DNA of 64,000 bases, from assembly GCF_055900595.2 (NCBI RefSeq), contig NZ_CM148325.1, one strand, 5' to 3'. Below the pieces are notes generated by a model. The model did not search any database. It was given only the letters and a program-made list of their open reading frames with translations, and was not told the DNA's origin. Shown here in pieces: positions 26,197 through 36,237 of this stretch. A program made the position numbers and the translations under genes. The number at the start of each line of letters is the position of its first letter. The stretch's first letter is position 1.

Positions 26197-26290
26197 TTAA
26201 TTCGTAAAACGTGCTACCGATCACATTAAGAATTCTCAGCATAGTTGAATTACAGGGAAGTAACATCGGGCGAGTGCCCAGTTCAGCACA

Positions 26291-27199
26291 CTAATTCTGC
26301 TGTAAAAAGTGCAGAAACTGACTTAAAGCATAAGAAGGCGTTTCGTTATTACGCCAAAACACACCGACGCTGCCTTTCTGTTCAATCTTTGGCAGGTTGA
26401 GGATCACCAGTTGCCCCTGGCTGGCATAACGTTGCGCCAGGCGTAATGACAAAATAGAGATCATATTGCTGCTTTGTAACAGGTTGGTACTGACGTTCAT
26501 CGACGCCGACTCAATCGTGTTTTCTGGCAGCATCACGCCGTGGTCTACCAGCGCATTATCAATGCTGATGCGGATGGGGGTACCTGTCGGCCAGACTATC
26601 CACCGCCAGTTAGCAAGATCATTCCAGCTGAGGGTGGCGTATTTCGCCAGTGGATGCTCAGGACGGGCGACAAAGCATACCGGCTCGGTGTAGAGCACGC
26701 GATAATTCAGCGGCAGCTGCAACGCGCGACCGCCAATTCGCCCAACCACCACATCGATAGAACCTGCCAACAGATCTTGCAGCAATGGGGTCATCACCTT
26801 CTCTTCGATATTCAGGTGTAGAGTTGGCATCTCCTTGAGCAAATGCAAAATCGCCTGGGATACGCAGTCAGTGGCGACGGGAGAACAGCCAATTTTCAGA
26901 CTGCCGACCAGTCCACCTTGTTTAAAGCGAGCCAGTTCATATTGCGATCTTTCCATGTCATTGATTAACCGTTGGGCATGTTGCAATAACAATTTGCCGC
27001 CTTCAGTAGGACGAAGTCCTTTGCTGTGCCGCTCAAAAAGTGTGAGTTCGATCTCATCTTCGAGTTGTGACAACCATTTCGACAGCGCAGGCTGGGTGAT
27101 ATTCATCATCCGCGCGACATGGGTCAGATTGCCCTGTTCACCCAGCGCCACCAGCATTTGCAGGTGATGTAGTTTTAGTTTTTGCGCCCAGTTCGCCAT
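26291..27199 (-). CDS. mhbR: LysR-family regulator of the 3-hydroxybenzoate/gentisate cluster
   Basis: HTH LTHVARMMNITQPALSKWLSQLE; start placed at MANWAQ (ATG 27197-27199) preceded by GGAGG; divergent from catabolic operon. Confidence 0.75.
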   Translation of the reverse strand: MANWAQKLKLHHLQMLVALGEQGNLTHVARMMNITQPALSKWLSQLEDEIELTLFERHSKGLRPTEGGKLLLQHAQRLINDMERSQYELARFKQGGLVGSLKIGCSPVATDCVSQAILHLLKEMPTLHLNIEEKVMTPLLQDLLAGSIDVVVGRIGGRALQLPLNYRVLYTEPVCFVARPEHPLAKYATLSWNDLANWRWIVWPTGTPIRISIDNALVDHGVMLPENTIESASMNVSTNLLQSSNMISILSLRLAQRYASQGQLVILNLPKIEQKGSVGVFWRNNETPSYALSQFLHFLQQN

Positions 27200-27325
27200 T
27201 TGCCATAACCTCCAGGTTATCTCTCTGTCCGAAATGCCATTGTACATCTCATCTCTTTAATTACATTATCGCAACATACATAAAACAAAAGAAACATCTA
27301 CCTTACCTGCACTGAGGCATTTACT

Positions 27326-28684
27326 ATGACTCAACGACGTGATTTACAAGCACTGATCGATGCTGCTCCGGTCGGCAAGATGCAGTGGCGCGTTATCATC
27401 TGCTGTTTTCTGGTGGTAATGCTCGATGGTTTTGACACCGCGGCTATCGGATTTATCGCCCCTGATATTCGCACTCACTGGCAACTCACCGCAGGCGATC
27501 TCGCCCCGCTTTTTGGCGCGGGTCTGCTGGGATTAACCGCAGGCGCACTGCTTTGTGGCCCGTTGTCCGATCGCTTTGGTCGCAAGCGGGTGATTGAGCT
27601 GTGCGTCTTTTTGTTTGGCGCGTTAAGCCTCGCCTCGGCTTTCTCACCGGATCTGCAAACGCTGGTCTTCCTGCGCTTTCTCACCGGCCTGGGTCTGGGC
27701 GGCGCGATGCCGAACACCATCACCATGACCTCGGAATATCTGCCTGCCCGCCGCCGAGGCGCGCTGGTGACGCTGATGTTTTGCGGCTTTACGCTGGGTT
27801 CGGCGTTTGGCGGGATTGTCAGCGCACAGCTGGTGCCGGTGATTGGCTGGCACGGCATTCTGGTGTTGGGTGGCGTGTTACCGCTGATGCTGTTTGTCGC
27901 ACTGCTGGTAGTTCTGCCGGAATCGCCACGCTGGCAGGTGCGCCGCCAGCTACCGCAGGCGGTGATTGCGAAAACCGTCAGCGCCATCACCCGCGAGCGT
28001 TATGTCGATACCCACTTTTATCTCATTGAATCAGCCTCCGTTACAAAAGGCAGCATTCGTCAACTGTTTATGGGACGTCAGTTACCCATCACGTTGATGT
28101 TGTGGGTAGTGTTCTTTATGAGCCTGCTGATTATTTACCTGCTCTCAAGCTGGATGCCGACGCTACTGAACCATCGCGGCATCGACCTGCAACACGCGTC
28201 CTGGGTCACCGCCGCGTTCCAGATTGGTGGTACGTTAGGCGCGCTGGCGCTGGGCGTGCTGATGGATAAGTTCAATCCTTTCCGCGTGCTGGCGCTGAGC
28301 TATGCCGTAGGCGCTGTATGCATCGTGATGATTGGCTTAAGCCAGGATGGATTATGGCTGATGGCGCTGGCGATTTTCGGCACCGGCATTGGCATTAGCG
28401 GATCTCAGGTGGGGTTGAACGCGTTGACCGCAACGCTCTACCCAACGCAAAGCCGCGCCACGGGCGTGAGCTGGTCAAACGCCGTAGGCCGCTGCGGCGC
28501 GATTGTCGGCTCGCTTTCTGGCGGCCTGATGATGGCGATGAATTTCTCTTTCGACACCCTGTTTTTCATTATCGCTGTGCCCGCGGCGATCAGTGCGGTG
28601 ATGTTAAGCCTGCTGATCACCGTGGTTCGCCAGTCGACCTCTGTCCCTGACTCACTGCCTCGCGCAGGCATTGTGAACGAATAA
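27326..28684 (+). CDS. mhbT: MFS aromatic-acid transporter (3-hydroxybenzoate/gentisate transporter-like)
   Basis: 452 aa; MFS signature [12 protein letters not shown]; first gene of operon. Confidence 0.75.
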
Positions 28685-28695
28685 GGAGCATCCTA

Positions 28696-29724
28696 ATGAC
28701 TGATAACAATCAAAAAAGCCGCGAGCAATTTTATCAGCATATTTCCGGGCAAAACCTGACCCCGCTGTGGGAGTCACTGCACCACCTGGTGCCGAAAACG
28801 CCCAACGCCAACTGTGCGCCAGCGTACTGGAATTATCAGGAGATCCGCCCGCTGCTGCTGGAGAGCGGCAGCCTGATTGGCGCGAAAGAAGCTGTGCGTC
28901 GTGTGCTGGTACTGGAAAACCCGGCGCTGCGCGGGCAGTCTTCCATCACCGCGACTTTGTATGCTGGTTTGCAACTGATCATGCCGGGCGAAGTGGCACC
29001 GAGTCATCGTCATAACCAATCGGCGCTGCGTTTTATTGTTGAAGGCAAAGGGGCATTTACCGCCGTTGATGGCGAACGCACGCCAATGAATGAGGGCGAT
29101 TTTATCCTGACCCCACAATGGCGCTGGCACGATCACGGTAACCCTGGCGACGAACCGGTTATCTGGCTCGATGGGCTGGATCTGCCATTAGTGAACACTC
29201 TGGGCTGCGGTTTTGCCGAAGATTACCCGGAAGAGCAACAACCGGTAACGCGTAAAGAGGGCGATTATCTGCCACGTTACGCTGCCAATATGTTGCCGCT
29301 GCGCCATCAGACCGGGAACTCCTCACCCATCTTTAACTACCGTTATGACCGTAGCCGCGAAGTGCTGCACGATTTAACCCGCCTGGGCGATGCCGATGAG
29401 TGGGATGGCTACAAAATGCGCTACGTCAACCCGGTCACCGGCGGCTATCCGATGCCGTCGATGGGCGCTTTCCTGCAACTGCTGCCGAAAGGGTTCGCCT
29501 CACGCGTGGCGCGTACTACTGACAGCACCATCTATCACGTGGTGGAAGGCGACGGGCAGGTCACTATCGGCAATGAAACCTTCAGCTTTAGTGCAAAAGA
29601 TCTCTTTGTGGTGCCGACCTGGCACGGCGTGTCGTTCCAGACCACGCAAGATACCGTTTTATTCAGTTTTTCGGACAGACCGGTACAAGAAGCCCTGGGG
29701 CTGTTCCGCGAAGCGCGTTATTAA
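28696..29724 (+). CDS. mhbD: Gentisate 1,2-dioxygenase (bicupin)
   Basis: 342 aa; cupin His motifs ([13 protein letters not shown]..., [10 protein letters not shown]); RBS AAGGAG. Confidence 0.8.
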
Positions 29725-29739
29725 TTTGGGAGAGAGAAA

Positions 29740-30441
29740 ATGACTCAATATGTATTCGAACCACAAGCGCCCGTTACCGTACCGGTTGTTGGCGGTGATG
29801 AACAATTCCCCGTGCGCCGCGTTTACTGCGTCGGGCGTAACTATGCCGCCCACGCCCGCGAAATGGGCTTTGATCCGGATCGTGAACCCCCCTTCTTCTT
29901 CTGCAAACCAGCAGATGCCGTTGTTCCGGTCGCCGCTGGCGAAACGCTGGCGCTGCCGTATCCGGCGCAGACCGATAACTATCATTACGAAATTGAACTG
30001 GTGGTGGCGATTGGTAAAAAGGGCAGCGATATCCCACTGGAAAAGGCCCATGAATATGTCTGGGGTTATGCCACAGGCCTTGATATGACGCGCCGGGACC
30101 GTCAAATGGAAATGCGTCAGATGGGCCGCCCGTGGGAAATCGGCAAAGCATTTGATCTCTCGGCCCCCATCGCACCGCTGCACAAAGCCAGCGAAACCGG
30201 CGGTATTGATAACGCACCAATCTGGTTACAGGTAAACGGTGAAGATCACCAGCGCAGCGATATTCGTCATCTCATCTGGTCAGTGAATGAAACCATCAGC
30301 TACCTGTCAGGCTTCTTTGAACTGCAACCGGGCGATCTGATCTTCACTGGTACGCCAGAAGGGGTGGGCCCGGTAGTGAAAGGTGATGTGATCACGGGCA
30401 ACGTCGAGGGCTTAACCCCTATCGCGGTGAAGATTGTCTGA
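29740..30441 (+). CDS. mhbH: Fumarylpyruvate hydrolase (FAH family)
   Basis: 233 aa FAH-family protein [41 protein letters not shown]. Confidence 0.75.
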
Positions 30442-30446
30442 GGTGC

Positions 30447-31094
30447 ATGATGAAGCTGTACAGTTTTTTTAATAGTTCAGCATCGTACCGGGTACGCATT
30501 GCGCTGGCGCTGAAAGGCATTAATTACCAGACCGAAGGGGTGAATATCCGTATTGGTCAGCAAAATGAACTGGCCTATCGGCGGATGAATCCTGTCGGGC
30601 TGGTGCCGACGCTGCTGACTGACGAGGGCGAGTCACTCGGTCAGTCGCTGGCGATTATTGACTGGCTGGATCGTCACTACCCGCAAGTTCCGCTGGTGCC
30701 GCAGGAAGAACCGGCCCGCAACAAGGTGCTGGAAATTGTCTATGCCATCGCTTGTGATATTCATCCATTGAATAACCTGCGCGTGCTGCGCTACCTGACC
30801 GAAGAGCTGAACGTCAGTGAAGAAGAGAAAAAACGCTGGTATGCGCACTGGATCCAGCAAGGGTTAAGCGCGGTGGAACAGCTACTGCGCCAGAGCCAGT
30901 CGGGGCAATTTTGTGTGGGTGAGACGCCGACGCTGGCAGACTGCTGCCTTGTTCCGCAGTGGGCGAACGCGCTACGTATGAACTGCGATCTGAGTGGATA
31001 TCCGCGCTGCAAAGCGGTGTACGACGCCTGCACACAACTGCCAGCGTTCATTGCCGCAGCGCCAGAAAATCAACAAGATAAAATTTCAGCCTGA
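30447..31094 (+). CDS. mhbI: Maleylpyruvate isomerase (GST-zeta-like)
   Basis: about 214 aa GST-fold MKLYSFFNSSASYRVRIALALKGINY; start could be 30447 or 30450. Confidence 0.75.
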   Translation: MMKLYSFFNSSASYRVRIALALKGINYQTEGVNIRIGQQNELAYRRMNPVGLVPTLLTDEGESLGQSLAIIDWLDRHYPQVPLVPQEEPARNKVLEIVYAIACDIHPLNNLRVLRYLTEELNVSEEEKKRWYAHWIQQGLSAVEQLLRQSQSGQFCVGETPTLADCCLVPQWANALRMNCDLSGYPRCKAVYDACTQLPAFIAAAPENQQDKISA

Positions 31095-31108
31095 CCAGGA
31101 GAACCATA

Positions 31109-32302
31109 ATGACTAAAGTGACACGCGCAGTAATTGTGGGAGGCGGGATCGGCGGTGCGGCAACTGCGCTGTCACTGGCCCGCCAGGGGATCAAAGTGGT
31201 GCTGCTGGAAAAGGCGCATGAGATCGGTGAGATCGGCGCAGGCATCCAGTTGGGGCCAAACGCGTTTTCGGCGTTGGATAGTCTTGGTGTTGGCGAAATC
31301 GCCCGCCAGCGCGCGGTGTTTACCGATCACATCACCATGATGGATGCGGTGAACGCCGAAGAAGTGGTGCGTATTGAAACCGGGCAGGCCTTTCGTGACC
31401 ATTTCGGCGGCCCTTACGCGGTGATCCATCGCGTTGATATTCATGCCTCGGTATGGGAAGCGGTACTGACGCATCCGGACGTGGAGTATCACACCTCCAC
31501 AAACGTCGTTGATATTCGCGAGACGCCGGACGATGTCACCGTTTTCGACGATCGAGGTAATAGCTGGAGCGGCGATATTTTGATTGGCTGTGATGGCGTG
31601 AAGTCAGTGGTGCGCCAGAGCTTATTAGGCGATGCGCCGCGCGTCACCGGTCATGTGGTCTACCGTGCGGTTATCGATTGTGCGGATATGCCGGAAGATT
31701 TACGTATTAATGCGCCGGTATTGTGGGCGGGTCCGCACTGTCACCTGGTGCATTATCCTTTGCGCGGCGGCAAGCAGTATAACCTGGTGGTGACATTCCA
31801 CAGTCGCCACCAGGAAGAGTGGGGCGTGAAGGATGGCAGTAAAGAGGAAGTGCTCTCTTACTTTGAAGGGATTCACCCCCGTCCGCGCCAGATGCTGGAT
31901 AAACCGACTTCATGGCGACGCTGGTCAACCGCTGACCGTGAACCGGTGGCGAAGTGGGGAACGAAGCGCATAACGCTTGTGGGCGATGCGGCTCATCCGG
32001 TGGCGCAATATATGGCACAAGGTGCCTGTATGGCGCTGGAAGATGCAGTAACGCTGGGTAAGGCGCTGGCGCAGTGTGAGGGTGATGCGGCGCAAGCTTT
32101 TGCGCTGTATGAGTCGGTACGTATTCCGCGTACCGCGCGCATCGTCTGGTCGACCCGTGAAATGGGGCGGGTTTATCACGCCGCAGGGGTAGAACGTCAG
32201 GTACGTAATCTGCTGTGGAAAGGGAAATCGCAGGCAGAGTTTTATCGCGGCATGGAGTGGCTGTACGGCTGGAAAGAAGATAACTGTCTGCAACCACGCT
32301 GA
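31109..32302 (+). CDS. mhbM: 3-hydroxybenzoate 6-hydroxylase (FAD-dependent aromatic monooxygenase)
   Basis: 397 aa; FAD-binding VIVGGGIGGAATALSLARQGIKVVLLEK and GDAAHP motif. Confidence 0.8.
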   Translation: MTKVTRAVIVGGGIGGAATALSLARQGIKVVLLEKAHEIGEIGAGIQLGPNAFSALDSLGVGEIARQRAVFTDHITMMDAVNAEEVVRIETGQAFRDHFGGPYAVIHRVDIHASVWEAVLTHPDVEYHTSTNVVDIRETPDDVTVFDDRGNSWSGDILIGCDGVKSVVRQSLLGDAPRVTGHVVYRAVIDCADMPEDLRINAPVLWAGPHCHLVHYPLRGGKQYNLVVTFHSRHQEEWGVKDGSKEEVLSYFEGIHPRPRQMLDKPTSWRRWSTADREPVAKWGTKRITLVGDAAHPVAQYMAQGACMALEDAVTLGKALAQCEGDAAQAFALYESVRIPRTARIVWSTREMGRVYHAAGVERQVRNLLWKGKSQAEFYRGMEWLYGWKEDNCLQPR

Positions 32303-32317
32303 GTACTTCTTACCCAA

Positions 32318-32378
32318 TCAGGTGCACGGACGGTCCCCTCGCCCCTTTGGGGAGAGGGTTAGGGTGAGGGGAAAAATC
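32318..32378. repeat. GC-rich imperfect palindromic repeat (BoxC-like)
   Basis: CCCCTCGCCCCTTTGGGGAGAGGGTTAGGGTGAGGGG; family assignment from memory only. Confidence 0.35.
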
Positions 32379-32420
32379 TTGCCCGAATTAATCAGTAAGT
32401 CAGTTTGTCTGCAAACACCA

Positions 32421-32448
32421 GAGGCGCTAACATAGCGCCTCATTTTTG
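32421..32448 (+). terminator. Hairpin plus T-run (terminator of mhb operon and/or IS200 left-end read-through terminator)
   Basis: GAGGCGCT-AACAT-AGCGCCTC followed by ATTTTTG. Confidence 0.65.
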
Positions 32449-32590
32449 TGCACAGAAAACCCCCAGCTAGGCTGGGGGTTCCGGAAAGCTTTCAGCTTTG
32501 AGCCAGTTATTAAAACCCCTTTTGATTTGTTAAAACACCTTGCGGTCTGGCAACTGCAAGTGTCAAACAAGAAATCAAAAGGGGGTCCCA

Positions 32591-33049
32591 ATGGGGGACG
32601 AAAAGAGCTTAGCGCACACCCGCTGGAACTGTAAATATCACATAGTTTTTGCGCCGAAATACCGAAGACTGGCGTTTTACGGAGAGAAGCGTAGGGCGAT
32701 AGGCAGTATTTTGAGAAAGCTGTGTGAGTGGAAAAGCGTACGGATTCTGGAAGCAGAGTGCTGCGCAGATCATATCCATATGCTTGTGGAAATCCCACCC
32801 AAAATGAGCGTATCCGGCTTTATGGGATATCTGAAAGGGAAAAGCAGTCTGATGCTTTACGAGCAGTTTGGGGATTTGAAATTCAAATACAGAAACAGGG
32901 AGTTCTGGTGCCGAGGGTACTATGTCGATACGGTGGGTAAGAACACGGCGAAGATACAGGACTACATAAAGCACCAGCTTGAAGAGGATAAAATGGGGGA
33001 GCAGTTATCGATTCCATATCCGGGCAGCCCGTTTACGGGCCGTAAGTAA
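32591..33049 (+). CDS. tnpA: IS200 transposase TnpA (HUH/Y1)
   Basis: MGDEKSLAHTRWNCKYHIVFAPKYRRLAFYGEKRRAIGSILRKLCEWKSVRILEAECCADHIHMLVEIPPK...; ORF track start lies further upstream. Confidence 0.9.
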   Translation: MGDEKSLAHTRWNCKYHIVFAPKYRRLAFYGEKRRAIGSILRKLCEWKSVRILEAECCADHIHMLVEIPPKMSVSGFMGYLKGKSSLMLYEQFGDLKFKYRNREFWCRGYYVDTVGKNTAKIQDYIKHQLEEDKMGEQLSIPYPGSPFTGRK

Positions 33050-33173
33050 CGAAGTTGAATGCAAATGTCAGATCGTATGCGCCTGTTAGGGCACGGCTGG
33101 TAACAGAGCCTTACAGGCGCATTTGAAAAACCTCCGGCTATGCCGGAGGATATTTATTTTTGCGGGTGATGAT

Positions 33174-34800: not shown

Positions 34801-36237
34801 ATGAATCGTGATTCCTTTTACCCAGCCATCGCCTGTTTTCCTCTGTTACTGATGCTGGCCGGGTGTGCGCCTATGCATGAAACCCGCCAGGCGTTAAGCC
34901 AGCAAACACCCGCTGCGCAAGTTGACACCGCATTACCTACGGCGCTGAAAAATGGTTGGCCAGACAGCCAATGGTGGCTGGAGTATCACGATAATCAACT
35001 CACTTCATTAATTAACTATGCACTGCAGAACGCACCGGATATGCAGGTGGCTGAACAGCGCATTCAGCTGGCTGAAGCCCAGGCGAAGGCAGTTGCCACT
35101 CAGGATGGCCCTCAGATCGATTTTTCTGCGGATATGGAGCGGCAAAAAATGTCGGCAGAAGGGCTAATGGGGCCGTTTGCTCTGAACGATCCTGCCGCAG
35201 GTACGACCGGTCCGTGGTACACCAACGGTACTTTTGGCTTAACGGCGGGCTGGCATCTCGATATCTGGGGAAAGAATCGGGCGGAGGTAACTGCTCGCCT
35301 GGGTACGGTTAAAGCACGAGCGGCGGAACGCGAGCAAACCCGCCAATTGCTGGCTGGCAGCGTTGCCCGCCTTTACTGGGAGTGGCAAACCCAGGCAGCG
35401 TTAAACACTGTTTTGCAGCAAATCGAAAAAGAGCAGAACACCATTATCGCGACCGATCGCCAGCTATATCAGAACGGGATTACTTCTTCAGTTGAAGGTG
35501 TGGAAACCGATATTAATGCCAGCAAGACCCGGCAGCAGCTCAACGATGTCGTGGGAAAAATGAAAATTATTGAGGCACGGTTAAGCGCACTTACAAATCA
35601 CCAGATAAAGTCATTGAAGCTTAAACCGGTTGAGTTGCCGAAAGTGGCAAGTCAGCTTCCTGATGAACTGGGGTATTCATTGCTGGCACGGCGGGCAGAT
35701 TTGCAGGCAGCGCATTGGTACGTTGAGTCATCGTTAAGCACCATTGATGCGGCAAAAGCGGCATTTTACCCTGACATCAACCTGATGGCCTTCCTGCAAC
35801 AGGATGCGTTGCACTTAAGCGATTTGTTCCGTCATTCCGCGCAGCAAATGGGCGTTACGGCAGGCCTGACGCTACCCATTTTCGATAGTGGTCGTCTTAA
35901 CGCCAACCTCGATATTGCAAAAGCCGAAAGCAACTTGTCTATCGCCAGCTACAACAAAGCGGTGGTTGAAGCGGTGAATGACGTGGCGCGGGCAGCCAGT
36001 CAGGTTCAGACGCTGGTGGAGAAAAACCAGCATCAGGCGCAAATTGAGCGCGATGCCTTGCGTGTGGTAGGTCTTGCGCAGGCCCGCTTTAACGCGGGTA
36101 TCATTGCTGGTTCCCGCGTCAGCGAAGCCAGGATCCCGGCGCTGCGTGAGCGGGCCAATGGCCTGTTATTGCAAGGGCAGTGGCTGGATGCCTCCATTCA
36201 ACTCACTGGTGCGTTGGGCGGGGGGTACAAACGCTGA
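34801..36237 (+). CDS. mdtQ: Outer-membrane efflux lipoprotein (NodT/OprM family); uninterrupted here
   Basis: Start taken at MNRDSFYPAIACFPLLLMLAGC (lipobox LAGC); weak RBS so start uncertain; ORF track starts at TTG 34711. Confidence 0.75.
   Translation: MNRDSFYPAIACFPLLLMLAGCAPMHETRQALSQQTPAAQVDTALPTALKNGWPDSQWWLEYHDNQLTSLINYALQNAPDMQVAEQRIQLAEAQAKAVATQDGPQIDFSADMERQKMSAEGLMGPFALNDPAAGTTGPWYTNGTFGLTAGWHLDIWGKNRAEVTARLGTVKARAAEREQTRQLLAGSVARLYWEWQTQAALNTVLQQIEKEQNTIIATDRQLYQNGITSSVEGVETDINASKTRQQLNDVVGKMKIIEARLSALTNHQIKSLKLKPVELPKVASQLPDELGYSLLARRADLQAAHWYVESSLSTIDAAKAAFYPDINLMAFLQQDALHLSDLFRHSAQQMGVTAGLTLPIFDSGRLNANLDIAKAESNLSIASYNKAVVEAVNDVARAASQVQTLVEKNQHQAQIERDALRVVGLAQARFNAGIIAGSRVSEARIPALRERANGLLLQGQWLDASIQLTGALGGGYKR

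Follow-up and report, generated by a model that had tools for sequence, protein, structure and literature searches.

In Escherichia coli K-12, the genes yohJ and dusC are adjacent and are separated in strain MG1655 by a spacer of 238 bp. In a 64,000-nucleotide stretch of the E. coli contig NZ_CM148325.1 (NCBI RefSeq assembly GCF_055900595.2), referred to here as the window, the interval between these two genes is instead filled by a six-gene cluster of the mhbRTDHIM type (positions 26291–32302), which is associated with the breakdown of 3-hydroxybenzoate through gentisate. This difference raises the question of whether the cluster was inserted in the ancestry of this strain or was deleted from that of K-12. 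The original prediction, which was made by a model from the sequence alone, had correctly placed yohJ next to dusC in K-12 and regarded the cluster as an accessory metabolic island. The cluster is indeed accessory: of 5,426 complete E. coli genomes, 611 carry these six genes in their RefSeq annotation, O157:H7 and O55:H7 among them. However, the direction of change implied by the word island is wrong, as judged by occupancy of the site in outgroups, by divergence that tracks that of the flanking genes and by a scar in K-12. Together, these comparisons make it very probable that the locus is the E. coli orthologue of the Klebsiella M5a1 mhbRTDHIM cluster, ancestral and vertically inherited, which has been kept in the lineage of this strain.

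Six intact genes of a gentisate pathway

Six uninterrupted open reading frames (ORFs) fill positions 26291–32302 in the order mhbR (divergent), mhbT, mhbD, mhbH, mhbI and mhbM, with cdd, yohK and yohJ on the left and dusC and mdtQ on the right. The genes, order and strands that had been predicted are all borne out, with every ORF at its assigned coordinates. Moreover, the ORF lengths equal those of the orthologues annotated in RefSeq, and no gene is interrupted. The functional assignment, which is an mhbRTDHIM-type pathway for 3-hydroxybenzoate via gentisate, is likewise fully supported by curated protein models, matches in the Protein Data Bank (PDB) and syntenic orthologues, from which the gene identities given below can be read directly.

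The mhbD gene (also called gtdA; 28696–29724, plus strand) encodes a gentisate 1,2-dioxygenase (GDO) of 342 amino acids. Its product passes TIGR02272, the curated model for this enzyme, with 600.5 bits against a cutoff of 442.1, and is 98% identical across all 342 residues to the E. coli O157:H7 GDO in PDB entry 2D40, a structure attributed to Adams et al. 2006 (PMC10306065). The alignment with 2D40 shows that MhbD has the iron-site residues His104, His106 and His145. MhbD also carries two Cupin_2 domains, and thus has the bicupin signature whose absence the original prediction had named as grounds for doubting the assignment.

Two further enzymes also score above curated models. The mhbM gene (31109–32302, plus strand; 397 amino acids) encodes an FAD-dependent 3-hydroxybenzoate 6-monooxygenase that matches the corresponding model, NF006021, with 758 bits (cutoff 459). 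Its best PDB match, with 269 bits, is 4bjy, whose deposited title is ‘probable salicylate monooxygenase’ and which we take to be the 3-hydroxybenzoate 6-hydroxylase (3HB6H) of Rhodococcus jostii RHA1. The mhbI gene (maiA; 30447–31094, plus strand; 215 amino acids, with the RefSeq start at 30450) encodes a zeta-class glutathione S-transferase (GST) identified as a glutathione-dependent maleylpyruvate isomerase. Its product passes TIGR01262, which covers maleylacetoacetate and maleylpyruvate isomerases, with 309 bits (cutoff 171), and matches the maleylpyruvate isomerase NagL (2jl4/2v6k) with 166 bits. Gene context suggests that MhbI prefers maleylpyruvate over maleylacetoacetate.

The mhbT gene (27326–28684, plus strand) encodes a major facilitator superfamily (MFS) aromatic acid:H+ symporter (AAHS), a putative 3-hydroxybenzoate importer according to its family scores and RefSeq names. 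MhbT scores 424 bits against the PcaK model (cutoff 770) and 379 bits, just under the cutoff of 418.6, against the AAHS subfamily model TIGR00895. The DGFD motif in the first transmembrane segment of its translation corresponds to the DGxD motif that has been described for the family of MhbT (PMC5566891). Its orthologues are named ‘3-hydroxybenzoate transporter MhbT’ in RefSeq, and it is 87% identical to the Klebsiella michiganensis protein.

The mhbH gene (29740–30441, plus strand; 233 amino acids) encodes an FAH-family hydrolase that is a putative fumarylpyruvate hydrolase. Its NCBIfam matches are to FAH-family models only (best score 155, cutoff 201), and its best PDB matches are 6j5y (379 bits) and 4maq (248 bits), the latter described as ‘putative fumarylpyruvate hydrolase’. 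The protein is 91% identical to its syntenic K. michiganensis counterpart.

The mhbR gene (26291–27199, minus strand) encodes a LysR-type activator of 302 amino acids. The longest ORF extends to 27247, yet the likely start is the ATG at 27199, which is preceded by GGAGG with 9-nt spacing. This is the start that RefSeq uses for the 909-bp orthologues, and it is where alignments of the LysR family begin. The best NCBIfam match of MhbR is PcaQ, with 183 bits against a cutoff of 303.8. MhbR is therefore a relative of PcaQ rather than PcaQ itself, that is, a PcaQ-like LysR-type transcriptional regulator, and is 85% identical to the syntenic K. michiganensis protein.

The identification is thus correct, but the pathway has already been characterised and annotated. 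The mhbRTDHIM cluster was described in Klebsiella ‘pneumoniae’ M5a1, where MhbR is a LysR-type activator (PMC3572157) and MhbT a 3-hydroxybenzoate transporter (PMC5566891). Names assigned by RefSeq in E. coli include mhbT, gtdA, maiA and 3-hydroxybenzoate 6-monooxygenase. Strain M5a1 is listed as K. michiganensis M5al in NCBI taxonomy, and the K. michiganensis type strain (L024) served as our proxy for its proteins. The type strain has these six genes in an identical order, orientation and yohJ–dusC slot, with protein identities of 85–91%, and the order of a divergent R followed by T, D, H, I and M is also found in Klebsiella oxytoca (L032). Compared with the M5a1 cluster, the locus described here belongs to another species, its E. 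coli alleles have an extra dispersed repeat after mhbM, and an IS200 element lies downstream in this strain.

The gentisate cluster of E. coli O157:H7 occupies the same locus, with 95.3% nucleotide identity over the cluster and proteins 97–99% identical to those of the window, although O157:H7 lacks the downstream IS200. The window allele is rare, with 8 of 619 matching records showing at least 99% identity. More distant systems, such as nag of Ralstonia sp. U2 and gtd of Cupriavidus necator H16, share the core of a GDO, a glutathione-dependent isomerase and an FAH-family hydrolase. Their operons have a different gene order, however, and the betaproteobacterial GDOs in our set are only 56–66% identical. 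The C. necator gtd system is inducible by maleylpyruvate, according to the title of the paper describing it.

The cluster resides at an ancestral site

For synteny comparisons, the flanking and cluster proteins of the window were placed on 80 loci returned by a scan in which each bacterial species was represented by one genome. The arrangement cdd-yohK-yohJ-[mhb]-dusC is seen directly in 28 loci that have all ten genes. The same yohJ–dusC slot is occupied in Escherichia albertii, in a cryptic lineage of Escherichia that is deposited as E. coli E69 and in at least nine other genera. Occupied slots occur in many Citrobacter, in Kluyvera, the Klebsiella oxytoca group, Raoultella, Pseudocitrobacter, Pluralibacter, Shimwellia and Entomohabitans, and also in several unnamed Enterobacteriaceae, and mdtQ follows dusC in most of these loci.

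The cluster has also diverged at the same pace as its surroundings. Across the 28 complete loci, the mean identity of the six Mhb proteins correlates with that of the four flanking proteins (r = 0.97), with a mean difference of 0.9 percentage points. At the nucleotide level, individual genes of the window are 93.4–97.4% identical to O157:H7 within the cluster and 95.0–97.9% in the flanks. Finally, no integrase, tRNA, direct repeats or pair of insertion sequence (IS) elements was found at the borders of the cluster (26197–26290 and 32303–32447).

Some genomes carry the genes at other sites. In Serratia (L030, L033, L035 and L041) and Trabulsiella (L013, L022 and L044), mhbRTDHIM is present without the cdd-yohKJ and dusC flanks. 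For Serratia, the identity of 88–90% is above the expectation for vertical descent, which suggests transfer from Enterobacteriaceae. A metagenome-assembled contig labelled ‘Collinsella sp.’ (L048) encodes proteins 97–99% identical to those of the E. coli cluster, and this identity almost certainly reflects E. coli contamination of an actinobacterial bin. The contig lacks mhbH and mhbI, and its mhbD breaks off at residue 251, directly before mhbM.

K-12 retains the terminator of a lost operon

The operon would end at a hairpin located at 32421–32441. This hairpin, GAGGCGCTAACATAGCGCCTC, is followed by a T-run, and together they constitute an operon terminator (32421–32447, plus strand) recognised by terminator detection and by conservation in outgroups. 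In E69, E. albertii and Citrobacter, a sequence starting with CTTTAATC begins 3–5 nt after the mhbM stop codon, and continues through a GGCGCTA(A/C)CATAGCGCC hairpin and the T-run to the start of dusC. K-12 keeps the stretch from CTTTAATCCGCTGACC to the terminator, which reads CTTTAATCCGCTGACCATAGGCGCTAACATAGCGCCTCATTTTTTT, in front of dusC, where there is no upstream gene for the hairpin to terminate. The retention of this mhbM-downstream hairpin indicates that K-12 carries the terminator of an operon that it has lost.

On the left side, the homology between K-12 and the window ends 58 bp past the mhbR stop codon (26232/26233). The junction alignments therefore directly define a segment, 26233–32416, that is absent from K-12-type E. 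coli. In K-12, the operon is replaced by roughly 105–120 bp of unrelated filler in the middle of the yohJ–dusC spacer (L002, 4431–4552), which holds a palindrome, AGAGGGATTGC...GCAATCCCTCT. The filler has no match in the 87 loci compared, except for a 14-nt stretch that belongs to the spacer downstream of mhbM. The K-12-type junction is present at 97.8% identity or more in 4,918 of the 5,426 E. coli genomes, and in roughly 507 genomes it is split into two places, as would result from occupancy of the native site.

These alignments indicate that one type of deletion, shared by roughly 90% of E. coli with K-12 among them, precisely removed the operon. Because the slot is occupied in outgroups, divergence of the cluster tracks that of its flanks, the borders are free of marks of mobility and the terminator has been kept, the comparisons establish the cluster as ancestral at yohJ–dusC in Enterobacteriaceae and the K-12 arrangement as the derived, deleted state. 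The locus is a clean case of an ancestral catabolic operon that was lost from most E. coli and kept in O157:H7, O55:H7 and this strain. It also corrects an easy error, in that absence from K-12 does not equate to insertion elsewhere.

Mobile copies elsewhere in E. coli

Downstream of mhbM, at 32320–32375, lies a dispersed intergenic repeat, CGGTCCCCTCGCCCCTTTGGGGAGAGGGTTAGGGTGAGGGG, which is GC-rich, about 56 bp long and matched at unannotated sites in almost every E. coli genome. The repeat follows mhbM in the window and in O157:H7, and is absent from this position in E. albertii, E69, Citrobacter and the K-12 scar. Since 611 genomes carry the cluster and about 507 have a split junction, some 100 genomes are expected to hold it away from the native site, and 26 places of the cluster are on plasmids.

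In O145 strain RM8843 (L084, 8001–14116), the cluster lies in an island that adjoins cadC and is rich in IS3, IS66 and ISEc60. On plasmid pMFDS1019527 (L085), it lies between IS fragments near genes for heat-stable enterotoxin and enterohaemolysin, and strain NCTC9100 (L087) carries an IS30-truncated remnant of the island version. The O145 copy matches positions 26239–32354 of the window, and its right end is inside the dispersed repeat. Because this repeat is found after mhbM only in E. coli, the O145 copy was taken from a native locus of this species. At 26239, the left end of the copy lies within 6 nt of the breakpoint of the K-12 deletion (26232/26233), a proximity to which we attach no interpretation. 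We regard it as doubtful that the six-gene module is prone to precise excision, is captured by mobile elements and is selected beside virulence genes in ruminant-associated E. coli.

A conserved inverted repeat is a putative MhbR operator

A perfect inverted repeat, ATAACC-TCCA-GGTTAT, is present at 27205–27220 and overlaps the Shine-Dalgarno sequence of mhbR. The original prediction had recognised an ATAACC-N4-GGTTAT repeat and placed it at about 27203–27218, which is 2 nt from its true position. The predicted overlap with the mhbR ribosome-binding region is confirmed by the location of GGAGG within the repeat on the minus strand, where the sequence from the repeat to the mhbR start reads ATAACCTGGAGGTTAT-GGCAA-ATG. 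This is the sole match in the 64-kb window, for which 0.10 matches with no more than one mismatch are expected by chance.

In an alignment of the mhbR 5′ end and the mhbR–mhbT spacer from 23 taxa, the 16-bp repeat is directly seen to be the most conserved element. Its ATAAC portion never changes and GGTTAT hardly does, in contrast to the variation seen at synonymous sites of mhbR and over most of the spacer. More broadly, of the 52 loci with an mhbR–mhbT junction, 50 carry ATAAC-N6-GTTAT at a distance of 5–7 nt from the start of mhbR, and those of the distant genera Xenorhabdus, Limnobaculum and Prodigiosinella are among them. In Shimwellia (L039), one of the two exceptions, the right arm is altered to GATTAT; in the other, Leminorella (L050), there is no match. 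Similarly, no operator match was found in Variovorax-type loci, which show no MhbR-type regulator. Saezia has two mhbT genes, and a second copy of the repeat precedes the second of these, where it is not an mhbR ribosome-binding site. In K. michiganensis, the operator is conserved and the mhbR–mhbT spacer has the same length as in the window, 126 bp.

The PcaQ operator PcaO used in a biosensor has the sequence ATAACC-TCCT-GGTTAA (PMC7970624), and the repeat in the window is identical to it at 14 of 16 positions. Its near-invariance together with MhbR-type regulators, along with this match to the PcaQ operator, leads us to predict that the repeat is most likely the recognition site of MhbR. The PcaQ system of Agrobacterium and Sinorhizobium, which governs the protocatechuate regulon, resembles that of MhbR in that the regulator is divergent from the operon. 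The two differ in their effectors and in the operons concerned, which are for gentisate with MhbR and for protocatechuate with PcaQ. The repeat is a ready target for tests of MhbR regulation or for a 3-hydroxybenzoate or gentisate biosensor.

Conservation in the 23-taxon alignment also marks a candidate divergent promoter region (27236–27278) with two invariant blocks. The block GCCATTGTACA, at 27236–27246, includes TACAAT on the minus (mhbR) strand and is a candidate −10 element for mhbR, whereas GCAACATA, at 27271–27278, is a candidate −10 element for mhbT. If these blocks are the promoters, then the operator would be centred 55–75 bp upstream of the mhbT transcription start site and just downstream of that of mhbR. 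Such placement is the usual geometry by which LysR-type proteins exert activation and autorepression, and would agree with the distance of about 55–80 bp from operator to activated start site that is typical of PcaQ-type operators.

The spacer takes a longer form in Kluyvera and its relatives (L009, L012, L020, L021, L027 and L051), where it is about 170 bp rather than the 126 bp found elsewhere; the excess is an insertion of about 43 bp immediately upstream of mhbT. In these same loci, mhbM and dusC are 1.5–2 kb farther apart. A hairpin in the RNA spanning the ribosome-binding site of mhbR was also considered and was rejected, with a fold z score of −0.55 relative to shuffled sequences and a predicted energy of about −3 kcal/mol.

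A model for 3-hydroxybenzoate use and its regulation

The steps of the pathway follow from the established biochemistry of these enzyme families. MhbT would take up 3-hydroxybenzoate, its probable substrate. MhbM, as an FAD/NADH monooxygenase, would hydroxylate this compound at C6 to yield gentisate, the ring of which would be opened by the Fe2+ bicupin dioxygenase MhbD to give maleylpyruvate. The glutathione-dependent zeta GST MhbI would then convert maleylpyruvate to fumarylpyruvate, and the FAH-family hydrolase MhbH would cleave fumarylpyruvate to fumarate and pyruvate, these being the likely substrates of the two enzymes. In the regulatory part of the model, MhbR most likely binds ATAACC-N4-GGTTAT, over the mhbR 5′ leader and Shine-Dalgarno sequence. 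MhbR bound at this site with an aromatic effector would activate mhbTDHIM, and mhbR itself would be repressed.

The pathway is predicted to be active in this strain. Retention of the operon may bear on the use, in animal hosts, of plant- or gut-derived phenolic acids such as 3-hydroxybenzoate and gentisate. The practical value of these findings is limited, and what they add is modest: that the evolutionary event was a deletion in K-12-type strains and not an insertion here, that the repeat is a conserved operator of probable PcaQ type, and that mobile copies exist in E. coli.

Alternative explanations

Several observations weigh against reading the locus as an inherited and functional mhb operon. 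MhbT, MhbH and MhbR fall below every curated NCBIfam cutoff, and hence their specific roles rest on orthology and context. The GC content of the cluster is 55–58%, compared with 44–53% in its immediate flanks, a modest shift that, viewed in isolation, might point to foreign DNA. The 80 loci that the scan returned include neither Salmonella nor E. fergusonii, which leaves the argument for the ancestral state short of exhaustive. The hexamers proposed for the promoters are weak, and a consensus scan of the mhbR–mhbT spacer yields no sigma-70 match at threshold; activator-dependent promoters commonly escape such scans. The slightly elevated GC content would fit a horizontally acquired island, with K-12 preserving the ancestral arrangement, as would the presence of the cluster in only 11% of complete E. 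coli genomes, the occurrence of the same six genes on mobile DNA in some strains (the O145 RM8843 island, a virulence plasmid and the 26 plasmid places) and the copies at other sites in Serratia and Trabulsiella, which are 88–90% identical. Acquisition of this kind is nevertheless very unlikely given that the site is filled in E. albertii, cryptic Escherichia and at least nine other genera, that divergence covaries with the flanks and that the borders lack an integrase, tRNA or direct repeats. A site that had never been occupied would also not be expected to have the downstream spacer and terminator of the operon, as K-12 does. Even the O145 island copy speaks for residence at yohJ–dusC, as it holds part of the E. 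coli-specific repeat and so descends from the native locus rather than being its source.

Vertical inheritance of the cluster leaves two further readings to be weighed, which concern what the inherited sequences do. The inverted repeat might not be a protein operator and might instead be a chance palindrome, or an RNA hairpin that masks the mhbR Shine-Dalgarno sequence and exerts translational control. GGAGG does lie inside the repeat, the arms have only six bases each, and the centroid structure allows a 6-bp stem in the mRNA. However, the arm variants ATAACT, GATTAT and ATAACCC arise with no compensation on the other arm, conservation over 16 bp far exceeds what a Shine-Dalgarno sequence needs, and neither the copy upstream of the second mhbT in Saezia nor the resemblance to the PcaQ operator is accounted for, which renders this explanation the least probable that we considered. 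Somewhat less remote, but still unlikely, is that the cluster is cryptic in E. coli, being unexpressed or serving another substrate (gentisate only, or another substituted salicylate or hydroxybenzoate). In the literature searched, no account of E. coli growth on 3-hydroxybenzoate turned up, and nothing useful emerged on growth with gentisate or on distribution across phylogroups. The cluster has been lost from most E. coli, and the specificities of the transporter and hydrolase are deduced rather than observed. Insertional inactivation does happen, as illustrated by the IS200 within gtdA of the near-identical strain AST85 (L003, 6500–8239). Against this, all six ORFs of the window are intact, the regulatory region is as conserved as in genera with a functional pathway, and the structure of the O157:H7 enzyme was determined as that of a gentisate 1,2-dioxygenase (PMC10306065, citing Adams et al. 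2006). Flank-like divergence, with proteins 97–99% identical to those of O157:H7, furthermore points to purifying selection.

An IS200 element between the terminator and dusC

Relative to the O157:H7 locus, the window has an additional 709-bp copy of IS200 at about 32448–33156 (plus strand), whose tnpA gene (32591–33049) matches NF033573 with 143.9 bits. Neither this element nor the dispersed repeat after mhbM figured in the original prediction. The boundaries of IS200 were set by alignment with the IS-free locus of strain Z0117EC0005 (L086) and are accurate to about 3 nt owing to the T-run. In Z0117EC0005, the cluster is 100% identical to that of the window, mhbM and dusC are only 159 bp apart, and there is no IS200. 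The element sits just after the T-run of the terminator, and 17 bp separate it from the start codon of dusC (33174). This insertion is strain-specific and external to the pathway, leaving the six mhb genes and the terminator intact. In contrast, IS200 parts dusC from its former upstream sequence, and dusC transcription may be altered as a result. Farther downstream, mdtQ (34801–36237) is an intact ORF of 478 amino acids in the window, and is annotated as a pseudogene in K-12 MG1655.

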